Assembly (NCBI GenBank): GCA_018167155.1
Contig: GCA_018167155.1_4332.1
DNA from: a phage
DNA length: 43,803 nt
Strand: one strand, 5' to 3'
In this document: in pieces, positions 10,899 through 27,588 of the stretch
Layout of the letters: every line of letters begins with the position of its first letter
How positions within the stretch are numbered: the first letter of the stretch is position 1
The notes under the pieces: generated by a model
The model's database searches: none
What the model saw: the letters and a program-made list of their open reading frames with translations, nothing else
What the model was told of the DNA's origin: nothing
Made by a program: the position numbers and the translations under genes

Positions 10899-10925
10899 CT
10901 AAGGCCCTTCATTGGGCCTTTTTAC
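10899..10925 (+). terminator. Rho-independent terminator
   Basis: AAGGCCC-TTCATT-GGGCCTT stem-loop followed by TTTTTA. Confidence 0.55.
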
Positions 10926-10935
10926 CGGAGTCAGA

Positions 10936-11409
10936 ATGGAACATATAAAAGATTTTCTTAGTTATAACCGAGAAACCGGAATATTCACATGGATACAACC
11001 TACGTACAGACGAGGAAAACCCGGAGACATCGCAGGATGCATCAATAGTAGCGGATACTGGCGAATACCTTATATGGGTAGATATTACATGGCCCACAGG
11101 CTTGCTTGGTTTTTCGAGTACGGTGAATGGCCCGAGGGGCCTCTTGACCACATAAACCGTGACAGGTTAGACAATAGGATTTCTAACCTAAGGAAAGCAA
11201 CCACCGCAGATAATGTGCGAAACGCTAAAAATAAGGGAGCGAGAACGGGAGTTAAGGGAGTAGTTAAAAACGGCAACCGATTTTATGGGCGGGTACATTT
11301 TAACTACAAAAGTTATAACGCGGGCAGCTACGGAACTCTTGAAGAAGCAGAAAGCGCTGTAAAGAAATTAAGAGAAAAACTGCATAAGGAATTTTATTGC
11401 CATGACTAG
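10936..11409 (+). CDS. HNH homing endonuclease with AP2-like DNA-binding domain (paralog 1)
   Basis: ORF track 10912..11409; ATG at 10936. HINRDRLDNRISNLR is an HNH motif; GVKGV...GNRFYGRV...EEA is AP2-like. Confidence 0.7.
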   Translation: MEHIKDFLSYNRETGIFTWIQPTYRRGKPGDIAGCINSSGYWRIPYMGRYYMAHRLAWFFEYGEWPEGPLDHINRDRLDNRISNLRKATTADNVRNAKNKGARTGVKGVVKNGNRFYGRVHFNYKSYNAGSYGTLEEAESAVKKLREKLHKEFYCHD

Positions 11410-13600
11410 TTTATTATACCTGGATACCGAGACATTCTCCGAAGCAGACTTAAAGAAAGTCGGGTCGTATGCGTATGCGGAGCACCCAACGACAGAGGTT
11501 ATAATTTGTACGTATGCCGTTGACGACGGTCCTGTAGAAGTATGGGATTGCACTTCCGAACCAGTAATGCCAATAAGCCTACGCGTGGCGCTCCGTAATG
11601 TTATGCGTGGGCGTATGAAAATCGTGGGCCATAACTTTTTAATGTTCGACCGCCTAATCATGAAACATTGCTGGGGCTTTGATATTCCGGTAAGCAACAC
11701 CATCGATACTATGATTTGGGCGTTTCGTCACGCGCTGCCGGGATCACTTGATGCGTTGTGCGAAGTGCTTGGCGTGTCCGCCGACAATGCGAAAGATAAA
11801 CGCGGCAAGGCGCTGATTCAGCGTTTCTCTAAACCGACACCGAAGAACTACAAAATCCGCCGTTACACCGCCGAAACACACCCGGATGAGTGGGCGCTGT
11901 TCATCAAGTACGCCGTTAGTGACATCACTGCGATGCGTGAAGTCTTCCATAAGCTGCCACGTTGGGGTAACTCCGAGTTCGAAGACCGGGTACTGGAACT
12001 GGACCAGTTAATCAATGACCGTGGGTTTAAGGTCGACGTTGCACTGGCGGAAGCTGCGATTGAAGCAGTGGAGAAGCACAAGGCACAGTTACAGGAAGAA
12101 GCCCAACGAAAATACGGCGGCTCACTTACTGGTAAGGACTTTCTGCCGATTCTGCGTGAACTTGCGCCGGCGCACCGAATCCACAACGCACAGAAGTCGA
12201 CGCTGAATGACCTGTTGGCGGATGATGATTTACCGGACGATGCTCGAACGATTATCGAAATGCGCCTGGGGGCCGCGTCCACTGCGTCAACGAAATATAA
12301 CCCATTGCTGCTGGGCCGCTCGTCTGACGACCGCCGCCGTGGTTGCTTACAGTACGGTGGGGCGAAACGTACTCTGCGGTGGGCGGGTAAAGGCTTCCAG
12401 CCGCAGAACCTGGCGCGCGGGTACTATCACGATGATGAACTGGATAAAGGCATTTCAGCGTTACTTAAAGGCCGCGCGCATCGCCGTTTCGATGTCGCTA
12501 AGCTAACAGCATCAACGGTGCGAAGCTGCATCATACCGGAAGCTGGACATAAGTTTGTCGTTGCCGATTACTCTAACGTCGAAGGCCGTGGGCTTGCGTG
12601 GCTGGCGGGCGAAGAAACCGCGCTTGATACGTTCCGCGCCGGACTGGATATTTATTGCGTAACCGCAGGTAAGATGTTTGGCATGGACCCAGATGATATT
12701 AAGAAAAACTTTAAGGAAATCAGACAGATAGGTAAGGCTTGCGAGCTTGGCCTCGGCTATGAAGGCGGCGTCGGAGCGTTCGTTACGTTTGCTAAAAACT
12801 TAGGTCTTGACCTTATTGAGATGGCAAAAACAATGGACGGTACTTTCCCTGATCATATATGGGCGGCTACCGCACGTGGTTATGAATGGGCGCGTATCCA
12901 GGAAGCAAAGCGACCACCGCATCCTGGTGAAAAGGACGACCGACCATCGTATATTCTGGACAAGAAAGTGTGGCGCACATGCGACGCAATCAAGCGTATG
13001 TGGCGTGAGTCACACCCTGAAACAGTAGCGTTCTGGCGCGACCTTAAAGACGGAATTTTAGCCGCTGTGCGTAATCCTGGTCGTGAATTTTGGGCGGGAG
13101 CACACTTGCGCAGGAATGGCGAGCGCGCTATCCGAATATGGAGAACAGTAGAATTTGATTCATCCGGTAGGAAGGTTCCTGGTTGGTGGTTGTGCGTGGA
13201 GTTGCCGTCGGGCCGTATCCTTTCGTATCCGGGAATCGGAGTTAGCGTGACAAAGGAAACAGACGAAGACGGACGGGTAAACACGAATGTGCGAATCAAG
13301 TACCAAGGTGAAAACCAGTTAACCCGCCAATGGACTACCCTGTACACCCACGGCGGTAAAGCCTGTGAAAACATTGTTCAGGCGCTGTGCCGTGATTTAC
13401 TCGCATATGCGATGGTTAATGTTGAGGGTGGCGGGTATCCCATCGTGCTTTCGGTACACGATGAACTGGTATGTGAAACTCCGGATACGCCCGAGTACAC
13501 GGTGGCTGAACTGGAAAAATTAATGTGCGCGTTGCCTGAGTGGGCGGAGGGGTTCCCTCTTGTAGCGGAAGGTGCGGAGATGAAGCGCTATGCTAAGTAA
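11402..13600 (+). CDS. DNA polymerase, family A, with N-terminal 3'-5' exonuclease domain
   Basis: 732 aa; LYLDTETF (exo I), DYSNVEGRGLAWLAGE (motif A), RQIGKACELGLGYEGG (motif B), VLSVHDELV (motif C). Confidence 0.85.
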   Translation: MTSLLYLDTETFSEADLKKVGSYAYAEHPTTEVIICTYAVDDGPVEVWDCTSEPVMPISLRVALRNVMRGRMKIVGHNFLMFDRLIMKHCWGFDIPVSNTIDTMIWAFRHALPGSLDALCEVLGVSADNAKDKRGKALIQRFSKPTPKNYKIRRYTAETHPDEWALFIKYAVSDITAMREVFHKLPRWGNSEFEDRVLELDQLINDRGFKVDVALAEAAIEAVEKHKAQLQEEAQRKYGGSLTGKDFLPILRELAPAHRIHNAQKSTLNDLLADDDLPDDARTIIEMRLGAASTASTKYNPLLLGRSSDDRRRGCLQYGGAKRTLRWAGKGFQPQNLARGYYHDDELDKGISALLKGRAHRRFDVAKLTASTVRSCIIPEAGHKFVVADYSNVEGRGLAWLAGEETALDTFRAGLDIYCVTAGKMFGMDPDDIKKNFKEIRQIGKACELGLGYEGGVGAFVTFAKNLGLDLIEMAKTMDGTFPDHIWAATARGYEWARIQEAKRPPHPGEKDDRPSYILDKKVWRTCDAIKRMWRESHPETVAFWRDLKDGILAAVRNPGREFWAGAHLRRNGERAIRIWRTVEFDSSGRKVPGWWLCVELPSGRILSYPGIGVSVTKETDEDGRVNTNVRIKYQGENQLTRQWTTLYTHGGKACENIVQALCRDLLAYAMVNVEGGGYPIVLSVHDELVCETPDTPEYTVAELEKLMCALPEWAEGFPLVAEGAEMKRYAK

Positions 13601-13807: not shown

Positions 13808-13998
13808 GCAACAAACCATTTAGTAAGAAACTAGCCGCGTTAGTGGATATGCCAGAATGGGAATTTATCATGGTAATGGGAGATGGGTTCTTTAGTGACG
13901 TTTGTGCAGGATGTACGCACAAAGGTGTTTACTACTCAGAACACGACATCTACCAAGCGTACTTCCTGCGTAACCCGGATGCGGAGCCGTTGTTATGA
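13804..13998 (+). CDS. Hypothetical protein
   Basis: ORF track 13795..13998; ATG at 13804. Confidence 0.45.
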   Translation: MSNKPFSKKLAALVDMPEWEFIMVMGDGFFSDVCAGCTHKGVYYSEHDIYQAYFLRNPDAEPLL

Positions 13999-14492
13999 AA
14001 GCACCAAGTGACGATATAAAAGATTTTCTGTCATACGACCCGGATACCGGGATATTTAAATGGGTCAAGCACAGATGCCAGACCGCGAAACCTGGAGATG
14101 TTGTTACCTACAAGGACCGTAAAGGGTACATATTGTTAGGATGGAATAGGGTGTATTACCGCGCACACAGGCTGGCGTGGTGGTGGGTATACGGAGAGAT
14201 GCCAACTAAGCAAATAGACCATATTAACGGCATACGGGACGATAACCGGATTTGTAACCTACGGCTTGCGGATGAATTTCAACAGAACCATAACCGCAAG
14301 ACCCCAGTTACGAACACCAGCGGCGTGAAAGGGGTTAACTGTAGTAAGCCTCATAATGCTTGGTGTGCTCGAGTTGCTTTTAAAGGTACACGCTATCAGA
14401 TTGGGTATTTCCAGAACCTAAATGAAGCAGAGGAATCGCTGAGAGAATTTAGGGCAAAACTGCACGGAGAGTTTTGCAACCATGGCGACTAA
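13995..14492 (+). CDS. HNH homing endonuclease with AP2-like domain (paralog 2)
   Basis: 165 aa; shares DIKDFLSYD...TGIF.W, AHRLAWW..YGE.P, DHINGIRDDNRICNLR and GVKGV...EEA with the paralog at 10936. Confidence 0.7.
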   Translation: MKAPSDDIKDFLSYDPDTGIFKWVKHRCQTAKPGDVVTYKDRKGYILLGWNRVYYRAHRLAWWWVYGEMPTKQIDHINGIRDDNRICNLRLADEFQQNHNRKTPVTNTSGVKGVNCSKPHNAWCARVAFKGTRYQIGYFQNLNEAEESLREFRAKLHGEFCNHGD

Positions 14493-14799: not shown

Positions 14800-14991
14800 A
14801 TGAAACACGAATATGACCGCAAACCAGCACGTGACATTGTACCAGGTGACATGATTTTCAACGTTAAAACACGTCGGCCTGTTGCCGTAGATACGGTGTA
14901 CGTAGAGTCGAATGGTAAACTGGTTATTGAAGACGTAACTGGCAACGTTACGGCGTTCGGGCGTAAAGAGTTAGTTCTGGTGCTGAAATGA
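14800..14991 (+). CDS. Hypothetical protein
   Basis: 63 aa ORF with SD AAGGAATTGAG. Confidence 0.5.
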   Translation: MKHEYDRKPARDIVPGDMIFNVKTRRPVAVDTVYVESNGKLVIEDVTGNVTAFGRKELVLVLK

Positions 14992-15671
14992 TTGTCTGGT
15001 CATTGTTTGACGGTTCGGGCCTTATGGCCCAACCGTGGGCGGAAGCGGGCCATACTTGCTATTGTTTCAACTACGACGGTGCCGACCACGGCGACTACGC
15101 ACGACTGGGTGCAAAAGTTGAACACGACAATATCCACTATATAAACGCGTGGATTGATAATAAGTTCGACTTCGAGGTTGCGCCGGATATTATTTTCGCG
15201 TTCCCTCCGTGCACAGATTTAGCCGTTAGCGGTGCGGCGCATTTTGAAACGAAGCGGAAGAAGAATCCAACGTTCCAAGTAGAGGCCGTGATTACATGCA
15301 AAGTGGCGGCGCGTCTGGCTAAAAAGTACAACGTACCTTATATGATTGAGAACCCGGTTAGTGTTCTTTCGTCTTTATGGCGTAAGCCGGATTATGTATT
15401 CAACCCGTATGAATACGGTGGTTATTTACCCGAAGACGACACGCATCCAATGTTCCCTGAATACATAAAACCACGGGACGCGTACCCTAAAAAGACATGT
15501 CTTTGGACGGGTAATGGTTTCGTAATGCCAGTTAAGTCATGTGTTGCTTCCAGAGACGGGTACTCTGACCAACACAATAAATTAGGCGGTAAATCGGTGA
15601 GGACAAAAACAATACGCAGCCTTACCCCGCGCGGTTTCGCAAAAGCAGTTTATGAGGCCAATCATGTCTAA
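14988..15671 (+). CDS. DNA (cytosine-5)-methyltransferase-like protein, short form
   Basis: LFDGSG (motif I-like), FAFPPCTDLAVSGAA (PC motif IV) and MIENPVSV (ENV motif VI). Confidence 0.55.
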   Translation: MIVWSLFDGSGLMAQPWAEAGHTCYCFNYDGADHGDYARLGAKVEHDNIHYINAWIDNKFDFEVAPDIIFAFPPCTDLAVSGAAHFETKRKKNPTFQVEAVITCKVAARLAKKYNVPYMIENPVSVLSSLWRKPDYVFNPYEYGGYLPEDDTHPMFPEYIKPRDAYPKKTCLWTGNGFVMPVKSCVASRDGYSDQHNKLGGKSVRTKTIRSLTPRGFAKAVYEANHV

Positions 15672-17088
15672 GTTTCAAAGGCGCGAATACCAGAAAATAA
15701 TGACGTCGTTTATGCTACAGCACCCACGTTGCAATATCTGGTGCGGTATGGGCGGCGGCAAGACCTCGTCGACAATGTGGGTGCTCAACCGACTGTTTCG
15801 CAACGGGCAGCTTACGGACGACGACAGGGTATTAATCCTCGCCCCGCTGCGCGTTGCGTCCGGCACATGGCCCGCAGAACAAGAGAAATGGCGATTCCCA
15901 TGCCTGAGTGTCGTCGATGCAACGGGTTCAGAGAAGCGCCGCATCGCGGCACTGGAGTCGGATGCTAACGTGGTGTGCACGAACTACGAAGTTATCGAAT
16001 GGCTGATTGACTACTACGGCAAAGACGACTGGCCTTTTACGGTTATTGTTGCCGATGAAAGCACGAAACTTAAATCATTCCGCAGCCGTTCAGGTGGTAG
16101 CAAGAGAGCGAAGGCGCTTAGTAAAGTGGCGTTCGGTAAGGTTAAGCGTTTCATCAACCTTACTGGCACCCCGTCGCCGAACGGCCTCAAGGACTTGTGG
16201 GGGCAGAACTGGTTTATCGACGCTGGCGAGCGCCTCGGGTCTTCATACACGGCATTCACCGACCGATGGTTTAACTCGGTACAGAAAGGCAAATCGGCTA
16301 TGGCGCGTGAGTATCATGCGCGCCCGGGTGCGGATACTGAGATTCATCAGAAGATGAAAGACATCAGTCTCACGATTGACGCTGCCGAGTGGTTTGGGTG
16401 TGAAGCACCGATTATTGTACCGGTTGAAATCGACCTGCCGAAGAAAGCACGTCAGGCGTACATCGATATGGAGGAAAAGTTATTCGCGGAACTGGAGAGC
16501 GGGGAAGTTGAAGCGGCTAACGCCGCGGCGAAGACCTCAAAATGCTTGCAGATTGCATCTGGTGCCGTATATGTGACGGGTGAAGACGGGGAAGCAACGA
16601 AAGACTGGGAGAAAGTGCACGACACGAAACTGGATGCGCTCGAGTCAATTGTTGAGGAGCTACAAGGTGCGCCGTTGCTTGTGGCTTATCAGTTTAAGCA
16701 TGAACTGGAGCGCATCCTTAAGCGATTCCCGCAGGCGCAGGCGTTCGCCAAAGGTGCGAAGGGTAATAAGCAGATGGAAGCGTGGAACCGTGGCGAAATC
16801 GAAATCTTATGCGTGCACCCGGCGTCAGCCGGGCATGGTTTGAATTTACAGGACGGCGGGCATCATCTGGCGTTTATTTCGCAAGGCTGGAATCTTGAAC
16901 ACTATTTGCAGGTTGTCGAGCGAATAGGCCCGGTCCGCCAGAAACAGGCAGGACACGAGCGGCCGGTGTTCCTGTACCACATCGTTGCTAAAGACACGCT
17001 GGACGAGGTTGTTGCCGCGCGTACAGACGAGAAGAAATCGGTCCAGGAAGAATTGCTTAATTATATGAAGAGAAGAGGTAAGAAATGA
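15664..17088 (+). CDS. SNF2-family helicase
   Basis: ORF track 15652..17088; ATG at 15664. Walker A CGMGGGKT, VIVADESTKLK, LTGTPSPNGLKDLW and C-terminal GHGLNLQDGGHHLAF helicase motifs. Confidence 0.75.
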   Translation: MSKFQRREYQKIMTSFMLQHPRCNIWCGMGGGKTSSTMWVLNRLFRNGQLTDDDRVLILAPLRVASGTWPAEQEKWRFPCLSVVDATGSEKRRIAALESDANVVCTNYEVIEWLIDYYGKDDWPFTVIVADESTKLKSFRSRSGGSKRAKALSKVAFGKVKRFINLTGTPSPNGLKDLWGQNWFIDAGERLGSSYTAFTDRWFNSVQKGKSAMAREYHARPGADTEIHQKMKDISLTIDAAEWFGCEAPIIVPVEIDLPKKARQAYIDMEEKLFAELESGEVEAANAAAKTSKCLQIASGAVYVTGEDGEATKDWEKVHDTKLDALESIVEELQGAPLLVAYQFKHELERILKRFPQAQAFAKGAKGNKQMEAWNRGEIEILCVHPASAGHGLNLQDGGHHLAFISQGWNLEHYLQVVERIGPVRQKQAGHERPVFLYHIVAKDTLDEVVAARTDEKKSVQEELLNYMKRRGKK

Positions 17089-17223
17089 ACATCATAGCCC
17101 CGATTCCCGCATTGCAAAAACGTATCAAGGAACTCGAAGAGGAGGTTCTACGACTACGACAACAGAGGGATGCCGCTAATGCACAACTGGCGTTTGTACT
17201 GGAGAAGCTATCAGAAGAGTAGA
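17086..17223 (+). CDS. Hypothetical small coiled-coil protein (hand-called, 45 aa)
   Basis: ATGA-coupled to the helicase stop; reads MNIIAPIPALQKRIKELEEEVLRLRQQRDAANAQLAFVLEKLSEE. Confidence 0.3.
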
Positions 17224-17253
17224 GAAAAGGCCCCGTTTGGGGCCTTAGTTTTA
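17224..17253. terminator. Bidirectional terminator between convergent operons
   Basis: AAAAGGCCCC-GTTT-GGGGCCTT followed by TAGTTTTA; flanked by T/A runs in both orientations. Confidence 0.65.
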
Positions 17254-20205
17254 TTTATCTTCTAGTGCTGCCAGCCTCTTCTCGAACTCGCGCATCTTCT
17301 TACGCTGATAGGCAATCTCGATGAAGAACATCTGGTCCGCCCTAACCCCCCATCTGCCGCCGGGAGGGGATACTTGTACAGTCTGGCCATCTTCATCAAT
17401 ATCATACGCAGCTTCAATTGAGTCGTAGCACAAGAAAGCATATTTACAATCGGTAGAATCTTTCTCCATAAGCCCATGGTTGACCAATATGTCTCGCACA
17501 TCTTGGGCTATCACACCGAAGTGTATCCTTGCAGTGTCACCCTTGATTGCTAGGCTTTCAAGCCACTTAAAAGATATTACATGTATATCCTCCCATGCGG
17601 TAAGGAGTTGTCCCTCAATTTCCTCTTTGTTCGTCTTAAGTGTACCATCAGACGTGTTTATCGTACCGGTGGCCGCGTACACCGTAGTCCACCTATTACC
17701 TGCCGAACCTAAAGACACTTGCGAGTCTAAGTAAGGAAGAAAATTGTTGTATGAGTAGAAGCCTCCTGACGCATACATAATAGCCCTGTTAGGCGTTGCA
17801 TGGTTTGCCCCGTACAGTTGCAGCAACGCACCATCGGAACTGGATGCACCATCACCACCGCTAACTATCAGTCTTTGACCCGATGGGGTTTTAGTGGGGA
17901 CTGTTTTTGAAATCAGCCCGTAATCACCATCAAACCGTGCGCGCACGGCAGACTGTTGTGTACCATCGTATTCCAGCCCCGTTACATGCAGGGAGTACAC
18001 GCTTACATCATTGTCAAACGTTAAAGGTGCTTCTACATGGCGTACACCATCTACCCCCATGGCGACAGGTATTGTACGGTTAGGAGTTGCTCCGTATTTG
18101 AAATCACGTGATACGTACGGGTGGTCTTCAATCTTTATCCGGTAGCTATATAAGTCAGCCGGATGCCCATCATGTTTGTACCATAACTTCGCACTGTTAT
18201 CCCCTATGCTCCAGGGAGAGAAGAAGTCTTCCCCACCAAAGATATAGTACAACCAGCCATCTTTAACACAGACCGAGCCGGCGCCGACAGCAGAGTTAAC
18301 GATATGACCCTGGTATATTTGGTCGGTAATATTAAACCACTGAACATCATCTAAAGATGAAGGCCAGGACGACACATTAACTTTGCACATAAAGGTCCTC
18401 GGATACGAACCTTCATAGCGGCTGTCCTGCTCGCCACCTTCCCACTCACCAAAGGCACGTTCTGTACCAAAGATGTAGAGATAGTCACCTACTTTAGCGA
18501 ACGGAAGATTGGAGCGATGTACATTGTTCGGAAATCGCAAGTAGCTCCAGTTTTGCCCAGAATCGGTGCTCATCGCCAGTGTAGAGCCAGGGGAAGTAGG
18601 TAATGTGCCGCGTGTGGTAAGGTATAACACACCACCATAACTTTTCACGCACGGCTCAGAAGCGTTATCAGCGTATGCCTGAGCGACAGTGCGACGAACG
18701 AATACGCCAGGATTGTCATACACGTTACTAAAATACAAGACACCGAGACGCCTAGGGGACACATCGCCGTTGTGATAGCCGACAGCGATAGTGTAGTTAA
18801 CATCATCTATAACCGCAAAACTATGTGTCTCCGTGACACACAAATCAGCGTTAGTGGAGTATGCTACCCCAGGCAATTCAGTAATTTCCCACGGGCTGTC
18901 CCAGAATCGCGTTGCGAAGTTCCAGGTAACACCCGCATTGTTTATGGTGGAACTCGCCGGGGTTGAGAGCGTAACAGTGAACGTATTTCGGTTAATTATA
19001 GACGAAACCGTCATATTACCCGATACGCCAGTTGCCGATGTATTAGAGAAGTTAACCGCATCTCCTGCTTTTAGGCCATGATTTTCTATGACAATGGTAG
19101 CAGTAGTGGAGCCAGAACTAATAGTTATTCCGCCGGTTGGGTGTCTAAAATACGGCATTGGGCGTGACCAAAGTTCTGCCTTCTTCATCCGCGTATTAGA
19201 TAAGTAGCGGGTTTCTATAACTGCATATAATCGGTTGCCGCATGTACCCATGCTCATGCAGTGGTAGTTAACTCTGTCCGTAGAAACACTAGCATTATAG
19301 TCAGCATGGATTGGAGTCAACCACTCAGGCATTGACCAAGTCTGCCCGTCGTCTCCAGAGCGAACCCAAGCTACATGTAAGTTTTGAACACCATGTCGTT
19401 CGCCCGCCATAAACGGGGCGTAAATAACATGGTCGTAGACGAAAGTTTTATCCTGCGTCCATGCGTTGTAGAACGGGGTATCCGTCACCTTAGTTAGTGA
19501 GCCGTTAAAGAAGCCATCAGCTACATAAGTAAGCGGTTGCCCGGCTACGCGCTCGTAAACGAATGCAGCATTCTTAAATTTACTAATGTCAGGTAATTGG
19601 GAAACTTTATAAGTCAAACCCCTGCCGTCTATAATCCAATTGTTGGGGGAAGCTGCTAATACATTAAAAATAGATTGAGTATCATCAGTTACGCCGTCGC
19701 CCACGGCGCCCCATGCGCGCGGGTCGTATTCGTCCTTCCATCGCGCCACATGTAAATCTGGGTACAGAATTGCACCGTTTACATCAGATATTTGCTGCCG
19801 CAGTATGACCGACCCGACAGGCTGCCACGCCCCATCTGCCACGCCACCGGTGGACTGCGGAGAAGATGACGCTGGGATAATTTTTGGTAGAGCACCCAAC
19901 CAATAGTACCAATCCCCGTCACCGCCAGAGGACGACGACCACAAAACTGCGGTGTTTCGGTCGTTAGCGGATAGTGTACCGCCTGACGTGAAATCAAAAT
20001 CTGCCAGTTTAAAACCAGCATCACGCAACACGGCAGGTAACGTCTTCTGGGTCTGTCCAGTAACCTGATTTGTCGCGTAATCAATATCGGCACCACCGGC
20101 GACACCGCCGGATTTGCCAGTGATAACCTCGGCCTCGAAAATCTGATGTTTCTTGGCGGTTTGTAAATCCGCCAGGCTTAAAACGTCACCGCATCCGCTT
20201 GACAT
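17251..20205 (-). CDS. Tailspike / tail fibre with Asp-box glycosidase-like domain and C-terminal intramolecular chaperone (peptidase S74-like) domain
   Basis: 984 aa; Asp-boxes SGDDGQTW and STDSGQNW; C-terminal roughly 130 aa resemble the auto-cleaving chaperone domain of endosialidases and L-shaped tail fibres; SD AAGAGGA. Confidence 0.7.
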   Translation of the reverse strand: MSSGCGDVLSLADLQTAKKHQIFEAEVITGKSGGVAGGADIDYATNQVTGQTQKTLPAVLRDAGFKLADFDFTSGGTLSANDRNTAVLWSSSSGGDGDWYYWLGALPKIIPASSSPQSTGGVADGAWQPVGSVILRQQISDVNGAILYPDLHVARWKDEYDPRAWGAVGDGVTDDTQSIFNVLAASPNNWIIDGRGLTYKVSQLPDISKFKNAAFVYERVAGQPLTYVADGFFNGSLTKVTDTPFYNAWTQDKTFVYDHVIYAPFMAGERHGVQNLHVAWVRSGDDGQTWSMPEWLTPIHADYNASVSTDRVNYHCMSMGTCGNRLYAVIETRYLSNTRMKKAELWSRPMPYFRHPTGGITISSGSTTATIVIENHGLKAGDAVNFSNTSATGVSGNMTVSSIINRNTFTVTLSTPASSTINNAGVTWNFATRFWDSPWEITELPGVAYSTNADLCVTETHSFAVIDDVNYTIAVGYHNGDVSPRRLGVLYFSNVYDNPGVFVRRTVAQAYADNASEPCVKSYGGVLYLTTRGTLPTSPGSTLAMSTDSGQNWSYLRFPNNVHRSNLPFAKVGDYLYIFGTERAFGEWEGGEQDSRYEGSYPRTFMCKVNVSSWPSSLDDVQWFNITDQIYQGHIVNSAVGAGSVCVKDGWLYYIFGGEDFFSPWSIGDNSAKLWYKHDGHPADLYSYRIKIEDHPYVSRDFKYGATPNRTIPVAMGVDGVRHVEAPLTFDNDVSVYSLHVTGLEYDGTQQSAVRARFDGDYGLISKTVPTKTPSGQRLIVSGGDGASSSDGALLQLYGANHATPNRAIMYASGGFYSYNNFLPYLDSQVSLGSAGNRWTTVYAATGTINTSDGTLKTNKEEIEGQLLTAWEDIHVISFKWLESLAIKGDTARIHFGVIAQDVRDILVNHGLMEKDSTDCKYAFLCYDSIEAAYDIDEDGQTVQVSPPGGRWGVRADQMFFIEIAYQRKKMREFEKRLAALEDK

Positions 20206-20217
20206 ATAGAGTCCTCT

Positions 20218-22773
20218 TTAATTAAAACCATTGCTGAATCCGTCGGAGAAACCGCTGCCGTATGGCGCGACGCCGTCGTATTTATAGAATCCGTCGTCAT
20301 AGTTGTAGCCAGTAATCTTGACCGTGCGGTCGTCGCCAGGGTCGATTGAAGAAACAACTATCTTCTGAGCATTATGCCTTGCTTCGTTGCCGAATGAAAA
20401 CTCAGTTTTTAGCGCACTATTCCCCGTGTAGATTGCCTCCTCCGGCGCGGAGAGCATAATCACTTCGCGGTCGTGGCTTCCTTTGATAACAGAGATACTC
20501 TGCACAGAGCCGTCGCGCTTCTTAAGAATGATGGAGTGGTCGTCCCCGGGAGTAAACGTAACAGGCTGTGACAGCGTCAGCGTAAGCCCGTTAACGTCAA
20601 CAACATAACCATCTTGCGGGGCGATGCGGGAGCCTTTAACTACGCTGATTACACCGCCGGGTGTAGCGAGAGCGCCTTCTTCTGTAGCTTCGAACTCTAC
20701 GACAACTTTACTTAACGCATTGCGCTGATAGCGACGCCGCGCCAGCCAGTACGCCTGCTGATAGTTACGCACGCCTTTCGATTCGTACTCCTCCGTGTTT
20801 GCGCCGAGTTCTTCCGGGATATAAATAGTTTCCTGTACGTTAGTATCCGGGTCAATGTACGAGAACGACAGGCTATCGTAGGTCGTAGAATCATTAAACG
20901 TGCGGGTCCATTTCTCTGTACCAGTAGTTTTGCTGCGGTGAGTGAACACCATCTCGGGCCCTGCAACCGGGCGGTCGAAGCGCAACATAATATCCGCGCC
21001 TTTACGGTACGCGGTACAGAACACGGCTTCGGCTATAGTCTGAACGATGTCCTGCATCGTGGTGTCGTAATCGTCGAACGTGTAGCAGAACTGACCTGCT
21101 AATTCGCTGCCAAAATAGGACTCAATTTCTTCTTGCACGGCAAGCAACTTATCCATGTTTGCCGTTGTCAGTTCCAGATTACCCACCACCGGGTCGCGAG
21201 CCAGTCTGATTAGCGACTGCACCGCTTGAGTATTTGGGGTCATTACTGTATCGAATACCCCATTGCCTAAGTATTTGTAGCACATCTCTGTCGCGATCAT
21301 GCGCAGTTCCGGGTTGTCGATACTGGCTGCACGCGGTGTCTGTTTACGGGCACAATGTACGGTAGTTCGGTTGCCGTAGTGCGGGGTTGTGTCCAGAGAC
21401 TGCCCGTACAGGTTAATGAAGGTTATCTCGTCGCTTACCGTTCCGTCGTAGTCCTTGTCGAAATTCGTTACACGGCGCATACGGGCGCGGAAACGCGATG
21501 CAGTAGGCAACTGCCCGTAGATAGACGTACCGACGTAATCCGTGCTATTACCAGTAATCGTAGCACGTACCGTGTAAATGTCGCTCAACGGGTTACGCTG
21601 AGAGTCAATCATCTGGTACTGGAGTTCTACCGTTACGCTGGTGCGATTATAGCCGCCGTCATATTTGTAGAGGCCGTTTTGCCCTGCAACGTTAGCAAGC
21701 ACACGGTCAACTTCCCCGCGCACCATGTAATACCAGTCGGTCAGGGATACGTCATAGGTGTTGCTCGGGCCGATAAACGTATCTGAACGCTCTGTTAGCG
21801 TGTACGTCTGCCCGCTAGTCAACGCGGCCCAGTTAGACGCCCCGTTTACGGCTAATCTTACTTCGAAGTCGTCAACGTATAAAACCTCAAACGAGCCGTT
21901 CAGGTTAGTGACATCAGTAACGTCAAAGTTGCTCAACACCGCGACATCACCGACGCTAAGAAACTCAGAAAAAGCAGAGTCGCCGGACGGGTCATAAATG
22001 TAGCCGGTGTTTGAAATACGTTTGGCTGTGCCGTCGGCGCTTGGGTTAGCCCCGATGTCGTTTGGCGCTTTCAGTACAATACCGTCAACGTCGTCGTTGG
22101 AGTATGTCACATAGAGTTTCTGGTCAATGACGTCGCCGATTTGTAGTTGCGGCGATGCGGTGTTGTTCGGTGACGTGTACGGTGCATATACAGCAACAGA
22201 GGAACCGGTGATGTCGCTTATCAGGGTATCGCCTTCCGTGACGCCATCAGACTCGATATGCAGATGCCCGCGCCCGGCATCATAGTACGAATACTCCAGC
22301 AAAGCACCCGTGGAGTTGAACGCCTTATACGTCTGCATCAGGTCGTTAGGGATTGTCTGCACAGTCCCGCAGATGTCATAAGAGCGCTCATAGGGGCGCG
22401 GCTTGTTGGAGCGGTCTGTGAGACTGTTATTAGGCGATGTTGTCTGGTTGTTAGTCGCCGTGTAGTTGGCGTTGGTGGCCGTGTTCAGACCGAACAACTT
22501 GGCAATTGGCTTAAGGATAAAACCGAACACCTTACTAACTGCACCGAGCGCCCCGCTACCGGCGCCCTCAATAATGTGGTACACGGCGTCTTCGTCTTTG
22601 AGTGCGTCGAAGTCGTCGGTGACATCAGTATCATCGCCAATCTCGCCCAGGTAGACGCGCACCGGCACGCCGTCCGGGATACGGTTAACGACAAACTCCA
22701 TCGGCATCCCGACGTGTTTTGTACGGTCGAAAGCTCCATCAGCGTTTCGCGTGTAGTGCAGGATTATCGCCAA
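20218..22773 (-). CDS. Central tail / host-specificity protein (gpJ-like)
   Basis: 851 aa, last large gene of the tail module before the tailspike; call is by size and synteny. Confidence 0.5.
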   Translation of the reverse strand: MAIILHYTRNADGAFDRTKHVGMPMEFVVNRIPDGVPVRVYLGEIGDDTDVTDDFDALKDEDAVYHIIEGAGSGALGAVSKVFGFILKPIAKLFGLNTATNANYTATNNQTTSPNNSLTDRSNKPRPYERSYDICGTVQTIPNDLMQTYKAFNSTGALLEYSYYDAGRGHLHIESDGVTEGDTLISDITGSSVAVYAPYTSPNNTASPQLQIGDVIDQKLYVTYSNDDVDGIVLKAPNDIGANPSADGTAKRISNTGYIYDPSGDSAFSEFLSVGDVAVLSNFDVTDVTNLNGSFEVLYVDDFEVRLAVNGASNWAALTSGQTYTLTERSDTFIGPSNTYDVSLTDWYYMVRGEVDRVLANVAGQNGLYKYDGGYNRTSVTVELQYQMIDSQRNPLSDIYTVRATITGNSTDYVGTSIYGQLPTASRFRARMRRVTNFDKDYDGTVSDEITFINLYGQSLDTTPHYGNRTTVHCARKQTPRAASIDNPELRMIATEMCYKYLGNGVFDTVMTPNTQAVQSLIRLARDPVVGNLELTTANMDKLLAVQEEIESYFGSELAGQFCYTFDDYDTTMQDIVQTIAEAVFCTAYRKGADIMLRFDRPVAGPEMVFTHRSKTTGTEKWTRTFNDSTTYDSLSFSYIDPDTNVQETIYIPEELGANTEEYESKGVRNYQQAYWLARRRYQRNALSKVVVEFEATEEGALATPGGVISVVKGSRIAPQDGYVVDVNGLTLTLSQPVTFTPGDDHSIILKKRDGSVQSISVIKGSHDREVIMLSAPEEAIYTGNSALKTEFSFGNEARHNAQKIVVSSIDPGDDRTVKITGYNYDDGFYKYDGVAPYGSGFSDGFSNGFN

Positions 22774-24183: not shown

Positions 24184-26456
24184 TCACTTAAAGCCTGGTG
24201 CGTTTCTTGTAGCCTTCCTAGCTTTCGATATTTTGCTGTTACTATTCTGCAGCGAAGCAGCAACTTGTTCCTCTATGATGATACGCAAACGGCCTTCTTC
24301 GTCCTGTTCAACGCTGGTGTTGCCAATTTGTGCGCTGGTGTTATTTATAATGCTGATATTGGCCGGCCCGGTACCGCCGCCGTTCTGCCCCATAATTTCC
24401 TTCATCTGCTGTGCTGTGCGTACACGAGACGCGCCAGCTGGCATGATAACTTCTGGTTTACCACGTTCGGCGATAGTAGAAGCCTGCCCCGCAGATAACT
24501 GACCGCCTTGTTCACGGGCGGACCTGATAGCGGAAATCTGCGCCATACCAGCCCCAACGGCAGCAGCAGCGGCTACAGGTGCCAGGAACGGACCAACAAC
24601 AGGGATAGCGGCCGTTGACTTATACGCTTCAATAGCTGCGGTGTACGTGGCGATAGTGGCCTGTACGATAGCGAATGCCTTATACGCGCCAGAAGCCTCG
24701 CCCAACGCGGACCCGATATTTGAGGCCATGTTACCAAAGGCCGTTGCCGTTGCCTCAGCACGCTTGGTGGCGTATTGCTCGTTGATGGCGTTAAGTGCCG
24801 CTTGATACTGTTCCTCTTTAATCAGACCCTGCTCGCGGTACTTATCAGCTACCGCCAGTTTCTGCTGTTCCTGGATATCGAGAAGCTCAAGCTCCGTGGC
24901 ATTCTGGCCCATAATTTGAGCCATGAAGTCGTCGCCTTTCTGCTGCTTTTCCTGGGCTTCTTTCTGACGTTTATCCAGTTCATCTTGCCGTTTTTGCCCT
25001 GCTTCAAGGACAATAGCCGTTTTTGCTTGCTCGTATTCTTTCAGAGACAACGCGCCCTGGCTGTAAAACTCTTTTGCTTTAGCCAGTTTCTGCTGTTCCT
25101 GGGCGTCAATAGCCTTTAACTCGTCGTTGTTCTGACGGGCCAAAGTGTCGAGGTAATCTTGCGCCTGATTGCGCAATTGCTCCGCCTTCTTAGCGGCGGC
25201 TTTTGCCGCTTTATCGTCGGCGTTTCCGGTGCCGCCAGTTCCGCCCTTTTTATTAACAAGGCTGGCTAAGTCAATTTCTTGCTTCTTGCGCTCGTCATAC
25301 TGCTTGCGCTGTTCCTCAATTTCTTTCTTACGCTGCTTAGACCTGTCGGTAATGGCCTGGGATTCCGCCGCTGCGCGTTTTATGCTGGCGGCGTATGCGG
25401 CGTCAGCCTCTGCGGTCAGGTTTTTAAATGTGAGCGCTGCCGTTTTGCTCGGGTCAAACACATCAGCAAGGGTCTGACCTAACGCTACAGCGTAATCGTC
25501 AATGCGCTGGAACCACGCAATAACCTCGTGGAACGTCTGCTGAATGTCAGGCAACCACTCACGGATAGCATCAGGTATAGCCCCCAGCGAGTCTGACATA
25601 TCAACGGATTTGTCCTCGGTGTCGTATGCCAGGTCATTCAGGGCATCAGAAATAAACTTGAACGATTCATTGAACAGTGTCACCCAATCCTGGAGCGTGG
25701 CTGCTATCTCATTAGACGCTATGGCGTCGGTGAGTGCCGCGATAGCATCTTCCGCTCTCGCGGCTTGCTCACCTACGGCGTCACCAAAACCGGATTGCGC
25801 TACCGCAAGAACAAGACCATCGAAGGAGTCGGCGAGGCTCGACAACTGGCCATCTAAGGTCTTCGAACGCGTCTCCATAGCTCCGGCGAAATCAGTGTTG
25901 CCGATGTTTAGCAGGTATTTCTGAATCTCTTCGGAGTTCTTCTTAACGGTAGTCGTTACGCCGCGGAACGTGAACGAAACGGTATCTGCCTGTTGGGAAG
26001 ACTTAATGCCGAACTCTTTCAGCCGCTCAAACTCAAAGGTACTGGCGTCAGCCACAGCCTCAATCATCTGATTAAGGTCTTTACCCATAGCCGCCGCGGT
26101 GTTGCCGTAGGAGATTAACGCCTCTTTGCTGGGATTCAGGCCGAGGGCTACAAGTTTAGTGAAACCCTCTACCGCCTGATTGAGGCCATACGGGGTTTCT
26201 TTTGCGAACTGTTGCAGGACGCTGAAAGCCTTAGCCGCGTTCTCGGCGCTTCCGGTCATTGTGATGAGGCCGGAATTCAGCTTATCGAAGTTGCGCTGAG
26301 AGTCCACCAGCGCACTGAACACCTGTTTGGCGGTTTCCAGACTGACAATGGCAGCCGCGGCAGCACCTGCGGCTTTGGTAAGCCCGTTCAGTTGTGATGT
26401 GGTTTTATCGACGCCGGTCGAAGATACTCGTACTATCAAGCTAGCGGTATCAGCCA
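24184..26456 (-). CDS. Tail tape measure protein
   Basis: ORF track 24184..26472; about 757 aa, Ala/Gln/Glu-rich helical low-complexity sequence, follows the G/T chaperone pair. Confidence 0.85.
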
Positions 26457-26782
26457 TGATTTCTACCTTCAAAGATTGCTTCTAAGCCCATGATAATGTC
26501 TATCTCGAACAGGCTAAGCTGTTTTTGCGTAACATCGAGATAGGCTTTCAGGTCTTGCCACGTAACGGATTCTCTTGCAAACAATACTACAGCGTCCTCG
26601 CGCACGTGTCGCGTAAACTTAATGTCGCAATACGTCTCAAAGGTGGATATAAAAAGGGGCGGGCATTCTGGCCCACCCCGTCGCGCTGCACGTTTTTTCT
26701 TATCGATTACACCCATCGCGATAAGCGCCTGTTCGTGCCCGTCAGCTATAGAATCAAACTCTCTGATTTTATGCTTATCCAC
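26450..26782 (-). CDS. Tail assembly chaperone, gpT-like frameshift extension
   Basis: 110 aa ORF in the -1 frame relative to the upstream G-like gene; that frame stays open upstream across the G stop. Confidence 0.5.
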   Translation of the reverse strand: MDKHKIREFDSIADGHEQALIAMGVIDKKKRAARRGGPECPPLFISTFETYCDIKFTRHVREDAVVLFARESVTWQDLKAYLDVTQKQLSLFEIDIIMGLEAIFEGRNHG

Positions 26783-26814: not shown

Positions 26815-27231
26815 CTACTTTTCCTGTAATGCTTTGCGCTCAGCGTTATGGAACGCAGCTACCTGTGTGCCTAATGCCTTGAACTGGTCGAGCAACTTGT
26901 TAAACGCTTCCTTAGAGAAGGGCTCATCAAAGCTCCAGCCGTTTACAACTTCTGCTGCAAGTTGCCGGTTGAGGTCTTCCGCCAGTTCGTTAACCGCCAG
27001 GTTATATTCAGTATAGTCGCCGGTTTCTTTGGCGGCTTTTTCCAGTTCTTCAAAACGCGCCAGTCCGCGACGGTACGCGATAATGAAAGCACGCCCCGCT
27101 TTAACGGCGACATCCGCATCCGGGCTTACAACATTAAGCCATTCCCCCGAGTCTTCACCATTCGGCAGGAGAATCGGCATCTTCTTGCCTACCAGCGCTT
27201 TCTCTTCGAAATAAAAATCAGAAAGTTTCAT
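26815..27231 (-). CDS. Tail assembly chaperone (gpG-like)
   Basis: 138 aa acidic protein just upstream of the tape measure gene; candidate slippery site GGAAAAG before its stop. Confidence 0.6.
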   Translation of the reverse strand: MKLSDFYFEEKALVGKKMPILLPNGEDSGEWLNVVSPDADVAVKAGRAFIIAYRRGLARFEELEKAAKETGDYTEYNLAVNELAEDLNRQLAAEVVNGWSFDEPFSKEAFNKLLDQFKALGTQVAAFHNAERKALQEK

Positions 27232-27338
27232 TCTTTAATCCTTTGGTTAAGAGGTTACAGGTTAAGGAAAATGCGCCAGACGGGAACCACCCGCTTTTCG
27301 TGTGCGACACTAGGCGCAAAATTATTCTATCACATTAC

Positions 27339-27367
27339 TTGCACACCCCAATATAATAGGGTACTAT
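27339..27367 (+). promoter_or_regulatory. Sigma70-like promoter TTGCAC-N17-TACTAT with AATAG-N4-CTATT palindrome
   Basis: TTGCAC 27339-27344, TACTAT 27362-27367, palindrome AATAGGGTACTATT at about 27355-27368. Confidence 0.6.
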
Positions 27368-27396
27368 TCACTTACACCAACAATGAGGGGTTTAAA

Positions 27397-27588
27397 ATGT
27401 CAAGTTTACCAGTTTCCTTAATCCTGTTTGCACTTCTCGCCTATTTCGCACCTTTCCTGGTTGCATATTTCCGTAACCATAAAGCGAAGTTGGCGATATT
27501 CATGGCCAACCTGTTTCTCTGTTGGGTTCTGCTGCCGTGGGTATTTATTTTAATCTGGGCGTGCAACTCGAATGTTAACGAGAAGTGA
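27397..27588 (+). CDS. Superinfection immunity (Imm-like) small membrane protein
   Basis: 63 aa; YFAPFLVAYFRNHKAKLAIFMANLFLCWVLLPWVFILIWA matches the Imm_superinfect pattern as I recall it. Track ORF 26962..27588 is a longer frame; the ATG at 27397 follows SD GAGGGG. Confidence 0.55.
   Translation: MSSLPVSLILFALLAYFAPFLVAYFRNHKAKLAIFMANLFLCWVLLPWVFILIWACNSNVNEK

Follow-up and report, generated by a model that had tools for sequence, protein, structure and literature searches.

The open reading frame at 17251..20205 on the minus strand of the window, the whole 43,803-nucleotide stretch of phage DNA analyzed, is almost certainly the tailspike gene of a Kagunavirus that depends on the K1 capsule (K1G/K1H/63D type), and its product is predicted from the sequence to be an endo-alpha-2,8-sialidase (endo-N-acetylneuraminidase). 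The spike is of an already known kind, an ordinary K1G/63D-type endosialidase tailspike, and its domain content, residue conservation and near-identity to characterized enzymes were observed directly. It advances no open question, because the literature already covers the family, its structure, its catalytic residues and the chaperone-autocleavage mechanism, and GenBank contains near-identical sequences. Phage endosialidases make up CAZy family GH58.

The practical value of the assignment is host prediction, in that infection should depend on the K1 capsule of polysialic acid. Hosts with this capsule are extraintestinal pathogenic E. coli, including strains from neonatal meningitis and urinary tract infection and avian pathogenic strains. 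Endosialidases as a class are already in use as polySia-specific reagents and as anti-capsule therapeutics.

Gene context and domain architecture

The coding sequence is complete (984 aa, 108.0 kDa precursor) and was assigned from the ORF list, Pfam, PDB and DNA matches. It is a single ORF spanning exactly 17251-20205 (-), with an ATG start and a TAA stop codon at 17251-17253. Reading of the sequence places a Shine-Dalgarno motif, AGAGGA, at 20212..20217 (-). The motif immediately follows the TAA (20218-20220) of the upstream J-like tail gene and is spaced 6 nt from the ATG of the spike gene. The order tape measure, minor tail proteins, J-like protein and then spike is the same in K1G, and the position of the spike directly after the J-like gene matches the gene order of K1G, JSSK01 and Schulenburg. 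In K1G and K1H, the spike likewise follows the J-like gene and has a convergent helicase gene downstream.

Beyond the stop codon, the terminator scan and the sequence itself revealed a GC-rich hairpin, AAGGCCCC-GTTT-GGGGCCTT, at 17227..17246 (no strand assigned), with T-runs on both strands. Judged solely from its match to the consensus, this hairpin is probably a bidirectional intrinsic terminator, and the putative terminator probably separates the convergent transcription units of the tailspike and of the helicase and small ORFs. A bidirectional terminator is annotated at the equivalent place in phage Schulenburg.

All four Pfam endosialidase domains and a C-terminal Peptidase_S74 domain are present in canonical order and cover aa 167-912. 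The N-terminal extension or cap (End_N_terminal, PF12218, E = 8e-38) lies at 19507..19707 (-), aa 167-233, the region at which the crystal constructs of both endoNF and endoN92 begin. It is followed by the six-bladed beta-propeller catalytic domain (End_beta_propel, PF12217, E = 4.5e-221) at 18127..19506 (-), aa 234-693, into which a beta-barrel (End_beta_barrel, PF12195, E = 1.9e-40) is inserted at 18907..19155 (-), aa 351-433. Both models are covered over their full length (1-367/367 and 1-83/83, respectively). The triple beta-helix stalk (End_tail_spike, PF12219, E = 7.1e-75) occupies 17653..18126 (-), aa 694-851. Its last residue, T851, is predicted to be the C-terminus after maturation.

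The preliminary description had remarked on the combination of Asp-box repeats with a self-cleaving chaperone domain. The combination is indeed present, but it is not unusual, since phage endosialidases all share this canonical architecture. A pectate-lyase-type depolymerase, as attributed to K1-independent Kagunaviruses, was considered and rejected, as PF12708 gave only 0.23 over 20 residues.

Endosialidase relatives, active site and predicted substrate

Among solved structures, the spike matches the phi92 endosialidase (PDB 4HIZ) with E = 0 over aa 166-851 and K1F endoNF (1V0E/3GVL) with E of about 1e-229, and the alignment to 4HIZ and 1V0E is collinear across the whole catalytic and stalk region (aa 166-851), which weighs more than a predicted fold would. 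With the full endosialidase domain set, these matches bear out the earlier suggestion of a capsule-degrading tailspike. The phi92 enzyme endoN92 (gp143) shares 78.4% identity over 686 aa, aa 166-851, which comprise the mature catalytic and stalk parts. Phage phi92 is a myovirus with a 148-kb genome and more than one kind of spike, and the N-terminal attachment region of endoN92 bears no relation to that of the window spike. K1F endoNF (gp17; 1V0E, 3GVL, 3GW6), from a T7-like podovirus, has the same architecture and, according to the alignment used, about 48-51% identity.

Much closer relatives are found among the K1 phages. The gene is 96.3-99.4% DNA-identical to those of LF7074P1, L AB-2017, K1G and K1H and to the 63D gene, and K1G, K1H and L AB-2017 were isolated on E. 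coli O18:K1:H7. The tailspike of K1G and K1H, “endosialidase 63D” (ADA82273.1; Kagunavirus, Guernseyvirinae), is likewise 984 aa long with its domains in the same order, and at the protein level the window spike shows 99.2% identity to the K1G “tailspike 63D sialidase”. The cloned phage 63D endo-N-acetylneuraminidase (AB015437 / BAA32990) is 97.5% identical. It is listed among the characterized endo-N-acetylneuraminidases, catalogued with the alpha-2,8 endosialidases (PMC5380687), and K1 specificity has been attributed to the endosialidase gene (PMC5582158). The sister phage JSSK01 carries an orthologue with 95.9% nucleotide identity, the recombinant product of which degrades K1 capsule, forming halos on a lawn of K1 host, and specifically recognizes K1 cells in an agglutination test (PMC11641727). 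The 97.5% identity to 63D and the activity of the JSSK01 orthologue suggest that the window spike would cleave alpha-2,8-polysialic acid internally. It may act on alpha-2,8 linkages alone or on alpha-2,9 linkages too, as has been described for endoN92. The possible specificity for polysialic acid and the K1 capsule put forward in the preliminary description is supported by the near-identical K1-phage genes, the JSSK01 orthologue and a conserved active site (below).

It is unlikely that this is a spike of endosialidase fold directed at another polysialic acid, either the alternating alpha-2,8/alpha-2,9 polymer of K92 or O-acetylated K1, such that K1 is not the (sole) receptor. Such a substrate would suit the stalk position equivalent to K1F Q853, a residue with a presumed part in a second sialic-acid-binding site, which is Leu794 here. 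The phi92 enzyme endoN92 is the nearest solved structure (78% identity), and the original host of phi92 was E. coli K92 (PMC5380687). However, the phages that encode proteins 96-99% identical to the spike were isolated on O18:K1 hosts and depend on them, the 63D enzyme has its place among the alpha-2,8 endosialidases (PMC5380687), and an added K92 activity would widen and not replace the K1 prediction.

The active site agrees with an endosialidase that cleaves K1 polysialic acid. By alignment, H271, R485, E517, R532 and R583 correspond to K1F H350, R549, E581, R596 and R647, the active-site roles of which are given in PMC12632334, and the second-shell residues Q251, D252, H461, S462, K521 and N637 are identical to those of K1F as well. 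Taken with the cleavage residues, all 13 of the 13 K1F active-site, second-shell and cleavage residues that were checked (residue list from PMC12632334 and PMC3742443) are identical. Relative to K1G, the spike has eight substitutions (window residue, position, K1G residue: S90P, T338M, T415S, R564H, A642V, G776A, A845T and D919S). None of these eight, and none of the 25 differences from 63D, falls on the 13 functional residues.

Both Asp-boxes named in the preliminary description were found again, SGDDGQTW at 19336..19359 (-), aa 283-290, and STDSGQNW at 18547..18570 (-), aa 546-553. They are the two occurrences of the strict motif S-x-D-x-G-x-x-W in the protein, for which 20,000 protein shuffles gave a chance mean of 0.014 and P(>=2) = 1.5e-4, and they align column for column to the endoNF pair SGDDGQTW at 362 and SRDIGQTW at 610. 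The window spike and K1F endoNF agree at all five active-site residues, in both Asp-boxes and at the cleavage dyad (S911/K916 in K1F), and their chaperone domains are 49% identical.

A catalytically dead derivative that binds polysialic acid but leaves it intact, in the manner of laboratory active-site mutants, is very improbable. Binding and cleavage are separable in endosialidases according to the title of Jakobsson et al. 2007, but the five active-site and six second-shell residues are all identical to K1F and the eight substitutions relative to K1G are located elsewhere. Least credible, and refuted by the domain searches and alignments, is a generic BNR/Asp-box exosialidase or other glycosidase of superficial endosialidase likeness on a common S74 domain. 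Neither Asp-boxes nor S74 domains are peculiar to endosialidases, both being found in a range of unrelated proteins, but the endosialidase-specific models fit at 1e-38 to 1e-221 over their full lengths and the protein is collinear with endosialidase crystal structures from aa 166 to aa 851. The Pfam matches to BNR_2 (0.023) and BNR (0.43) were below threshold, so the window spike is not a generic exosialidase.

C-terminal chaperone and proposed mechanism

The last 133 residues (aa 852-984, 15.2 kDa; 17254..17652, (-)) form an intramolecular chaperone and autoprotease domain of the Peptidase_S74 family, as identified by Pfam and PDB. PF13884 (Peptidase_S74, “Chaperone of endosialidase”) matches aa 852-912 with E = 8e-13, and the endoNF C-terminal chaperone construct 3GW6 matches aa 756-984 with E = 7.6e-57. 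The likeness of the C-terminal roughly 130 aa to the endosialidase chaperone, proposed from the sequence beforehand, is therefore confirmed. The domain also matches 3GUD (phi29 neck appendage) and 4UW8 (T5 L-shaped fiber). In T5 pb1, the phi29 neck appendage and the eukaryotic MYRF ICA, a homologous C-terminal domain with a Ser-Lys dyad is joined to unrelated receptor-binding or DNA-binding parts.

Cleavage by a Ser-Lys dyad has been described (PMC3742443). Here the S-x-x-x-x-K dyad is S852-DGTL-K857, with the nucleophile S852 (17650-17652, (-)) aligned to K1F S911 and K857 (17635-17637, (-)) to K1F K916. The phi92 record annotates a “proteolytically matured endosialidase”, and the crystal chain of endoN92 (4HIZ) ends in TGTINT. 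These residues are identical in the window spike and align to aa 846-851, so that the terminus lies exactly at the equivalent of T851. Dyad and chain end both speak for the self-cleavage claimed in the preliminary description, and autocleavage should yield the 133-aa, 15.2 kDa chaperone and a 92.8 kDa mature spike.

For activity, trimerization and cleavage of the window spike, we infer the following by homology from K1F endoNF and phi92 endoN92. Three 108 kDa precursor chains would assemble with the help of the C-terminal chaperone domain, which would nucleate folding of the stalk into a triple beta-helix. In the folded trimer, the T851-S852 bond would then be cleaved by the Ser852/Lys857 dyad, which would free the chaperone (15 kDa) and leave the stable mature chain. 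Docking on the siphovirus tail tip, beside the J-like protein, would be the part of the N-terminal ~140-165 aa. The propeller, with its two Asp-boxes, the inserted beta-barrel and H271/R485/E517/R532/R583, would bind polysialic acid and cleave it internally, so that the phage could bore its way through the K1 capsule and reach the outer membrane. The host predicted on this basis is E. coli K1. A homotrimer is expected by analogy with the K1F and phi92 structures; this conflicts with the report of a homotetramer for the 63D enzyme (Machida et al. 2000, as cited in PMC5380687).

N-terminal anchor and Kagunavirus background

The window is the genome of a Kagunavirus (siphovirus), as its backbone matches Kagunavirus genomes. 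Terminal redundancy was looked for as a repeat between the two ends of the window and none was found, and tRNA and Rfam scans of the window found nothing.

The particle-binding module of the spike (19711..20205, (-), aa 1-165) was delimited by Pfam and by comparison with Kagunavirus spikes, and contains Tail_spike_N (PF18668) at aa 96-131 with E = 5.4e-14. Its first 141 residues are common to the tailspikes of K1-independent Kagunaviruses, and at the DNA level many further spikes of the genus match its initial 250-390 nt at 76-84%. The K1-independent phages Schulenburg, Snoke, Shashou and EcoPhCCP1 have the same anchor, gene position and terminator, but their spikes bear other enzymatic heads and are unrelated after ~aa 141. 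The Schulenburg spike (QEG06822), for example, is 66% identical over aa 1-141, with the first ~66 aa nearly identical, and is without similarity to the window spike beyond that point. Its Pfam matches are to G7C tail-fiber domains and, below threshold, a GDSL esterase, and it lacks endosialidase and S74 domains. K1F endoNF is longer at its N-terminus by about 85 residues that the window spike lacks, and its residues 85-245 align to aa 6-165 of the window spike with about 43% identity. This genus-specific N-terminal anchor went unmentioned in the preliminary description.

Compared with K1G, the surrounding genome aligns over 83% of its length, at only about 89% identity. In relatives, the spike gene is 96-99% identical whereas the backbone is only about 88-89% identical, which indicates recent module exchange. 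It is conceivable, although we advance it only tentatively, that the window represents a previously unsequenced species-level Kagunavirus which recently acquired a K1-specific distal-tail module by recombination. The bidirectional terminator at ~17.2 kb would bound this module on one side and the end of the tape-measure gene at ~24.1 kb on the other, with a lineage like phage L AB-2017 as the donor. Another possibility is a subtle change of capsule specificity, for instance in tolerance of O-acetylation or of K92, brought about by one of the eight substitutions that distinguish the spike from that of K1G.

The spike gene and its endosialidase domains

The tailspike is encoded by a single unbroken ORF of 984 codons (17251-20205, minus strand) running from ATG to TAA. 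The ATG is preceded, at a distance of 6 nt, by an AGAGGA Shine-Dalgarno sequence, which abuts the stop codon of the tail gene upstream. Both Asp-boxes of the preliminary description are present as quoted, SGDDGQTW at aa 283-290 (nt 19336-19359) and STDSGQNW at aa 546-553 (nt 18547-18570), and they line up exactly with the Asp-box pair of the K1F phage endosialidase (endoNF). Shuffled proteins contain the strict motif S-x-D-x-G-x-x-W 0.014 times on average, with a probability of 1.5e-4 for at least two (20,000 shuffles).

Pfam models recovered every endosialidase domain, arranged in the canonical order: End_N_terminal (aa 167-233, E = 8e-38), End_beta_propel (aa 234-693, E = 4.5e-221, whole model covered) with an inserted End_beta_barrel (aa 351-433, E = 1.9e-40), End_tail_spike (aa 694-851, E = 7.1e-75), and Peptidase_S74 “Chaperone of endosialidase” (aa 852-984, E = 8e-13). 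The last confirms the suggested C-terminal chaperone of roughly 130 residues, and the solved construct 3GW6 of the endoNF chaperone matches its 133 residues as well (E = 7.6e-57). In a Protein Data Bank search, aa 166-851 gave alignments free of major gaps with 4HIZ, the phi92 endosialidase (E = 0), and with K1F endoNF (1V0E, 3GVL, 3GVJ, and 3GVK; E ~1e-229). By tblastn, identity was 78.4% over 686 residues to phi92 gp143 and ~50% to the K1F, K1E, and K1-5-type podovirus enzymes.

Much closer relatives were found among Kagunaviruses, with DNA identities of 99.4% (LF7074P1), 99.3% (L AB-2017), 98.7% (K1G), and 97.3% (K1H) for the spike gene, and 96.3% to AB015437, the “Phage #D” (63D) endo-N-acetylneuraminidase gene, which was cloned separately. 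At the protein level, identity is 99.2% with the K1G “tailspike 63D sialidase” and 97.5% with the 63D enzyme. Together with the Pfam domain set and the structure alignments, these identities support the endosialidase-type reading, and the spike belongs with the K1G/K1H/63D endosialidase, of which it is essentially an allele. The phage endosialidase family (CAZy GH58) is well studied, and enzymatic activity and autoproteolysis are established for close relatives. The spike has every defining feature that can be tested from sequence. The novelty implied earlier does not hold, because Asp-boxes combined with this chaperone domain are standard endosialidase architecture.

Predicted K1 receptor, catalytic residues, and predicted maturation

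The proposal of polysialic acid (K1 capsule) as the receptor gains support from several sides. Phages with near-identical spikes have E. coli O18:K1:H7 hosts, and the K1 specificity of the Smith and Huggins phages, L AB-2017 included, has been ascribed to the endosialidase gene (PMC5582158). The recombinant JSSK01 orthologue, with 95.9% nucleotide identity to the spike, produced dose-dependent halos on the lawn of its K1 host and specifically recognized K1 cells in an agglutination test (PMC11641727). The 63D enzyme is among the characterized endo-N-acetylneuraminidases in PMC5380687. The linkage specificity may be shifted or broadened, for example toward K92, but this is unlikely to replace K1, judging by which hosts the relatives with 96-99% identity have.

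Functional residues were mapped by aligning the spike with full-length K1F gp17 from NC_007456. The K1F catalytic or substrate-binding residues H350, R549, E581, R596, and R647, named in a deep mutational scanning study (PMC12632334), correspond to H271, R485, E517, R532, and R583 and are all identical in the spike, as are the second-shell K1F residues Q330, D331, H527, S528, K585, and N699 highlighted in the same study. This full conservation of the active site contradicts a binding-only, catalytically dead variant. The 8 differences from K1G and the 25 from 63D all fall outside the catalytic, second-shell, and cleavage residues. A generic BNR sialidase is at odds with the endosialidase-specific model scores and the structure alignments.

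S852 and K857 align with the K1F autocleavage residues S911 and K916 (local sequence TINT/SDGTLK), for which a Ser-Lys dyad mechanism has been described (PMC3742443). The crystal chain of 4HIZ ends in ...TGTINT, aligning with aa 846-851, and the phi92 GenBank record carries the annotation “proteolytically matured endosialidase”; the predicted cleavage position T851/S852 is therefore well supported. Cleavage there would turn a precursor of 108.0 kDa into a 92.8-kDa mature chain and a free 15.2-kDa chaperone (predicted masses).

By homology, the C-terminal chaperone domain would direct trimerization and folding of the stalk, after which the S852/K857 dyad would cut the T851-S852 bond and free the chaperone. 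The mature spike would be held at the tail tip by its N-terminal module, and the propeller active site would make internal cuts in alpha-2,8-polysialic acid, removing the K1 capsule and giving the phage access to the cell surface. The K1F and phi92 endosialidase structures are trimers, and by analogy we expect a trimer here. The 63D endosialidase was described as a homotetramer by Machida et al. 2000, as cited in a review (PMC5380687), a discrepancy with the K1F/phi92-based expectation that has apparently never been revisited.

N-terminal anchor and probable module exchange

The K1-independent Kagunavirus Schulenburg has a tailspike that shares 66% identity with spike residues 1-141; the first ~66 residues are nearly identical, and the similarity ends sharply at ~aa 141. 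Past this anchor, the Schulenburg protein instead has G7C tail-fibre Pfam matches and a sub-threshold GDSL esterase match, without an endosialidase. For many other Kagunavirus spikes, the match to this gene is limited to its first 250-390 nt. The spike therefore follows the usual design of an exchangeable enzymatic head fused to a genus-specific N-terminal anchor. K1F residues 85-245 align with aa 6-165 (~43% identity), and thus part of the N-terminal region accompanies endosialidases in other phage groups too.

The spike gene is far better conserved than the surrounding genome, with identities for spike and rest of genome of 99.3% and 87.5% (L AB-2017), 98.7% and 88.8% (K1G), and 95.8% and 88.9% (JSSK01). 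Against L AB-2017, per-kilobase identity is 95-99% throughout the distal-tail block at ~17.0-24.1 kb (spike, J-like protein, and three minor tail proteins), and the adjacent tape-measure region at 25-27 kb gave no blastn matches; against K1G, the spike gene alone stands out. This elevated conservation looks like recent horizontal or recombinational exchange of the host-recognition module, a well-known pattern. The best matches in the phage collection have ~91% identity across 80-91% of each window half. As no record there covers the whole window at ≥95% identity, the backbone may belong to a Kagunavirus species new to that collection.

Genome context and neighboring genes

The window has the appearance of a complete, or near-complete, Kagunavirus (Guernseyvirinae siphovirus) genome (43,803 bp; 43,587 bp in K1G). 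No repeat shared by its ends was found, and a scan for tRNAs and Rfam families found none. Upstream of the spike on the same minus strand lie the tape-measure gene (24184-26472), three minor tail protein genes, and the gene for an 851-aa J-like tail protein (20218-22773), the order seen in K1G, JSSK01, and Schulenburg.

Downstream of the spike come a convergent small ORF and an SNF2-type helicase, set apart from it by a GC-rich hairpin with T-runs on both strands (17227-17246). The hairpin is probably a bidirectional terminator, and the Schulenburg annotation includes an equivalent one. The small ORF (~17085-17222, plus strand; ~45 aa, MNIIAPIPALQKRIKELEEEVLRLRQQRDAANAQLAFVLEKLSEE) has a coiled-coil-like appearance, overlaps the helicase stop codon, and terminates just ahead of the hairpin. 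ORFs at this position are labeled “hypothetical” in JSSK01 and K1G and “exonuclease subunit SbcD” in L AB-2017, the latter probably a misannotation.

Two paralogous HNH_3/phrog_99 homing-endonuclease ORFs of 165 aa each (10912-11409 and 13995-14492, plus strand) flank a 732-aa ORF (11402-13600, plus strand), by position the counterpart of the K1G/JSSK01 DNA polymerase gene. Both HNH ORFs coincide with nucleotide-coverage gaps against K1G, JSSK01, and L AB-2017 and are thus probably mobile insertions specific to this genome.

A 227-aa ORF (14988-15671, plus strand) matches PHROG 757 DNA methyltransferase (E = 4.7e-88) and, weakly, the Pfam C-5 cytosine methylase (E = 0.009). Its positional counterparts are ORF30 of K1G (“putative Mte8-like protein”) and, in JSSK01, a “DNA cytosine methyltransferase”. 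The ORF is present in some Kagunaviruses only and probably encodes an anti-restriction methylase. Within the structural module, a 208-aa ORF (26962-27588, plus strand) runs opposite to the tail genes and has a superinfection immunity domain (Pfam Imm_superinfect, E = 4e-10) at its C-terminus. Phages of this type are described as strictly lytic, and the ORF is an accessory “moron”-like gene.
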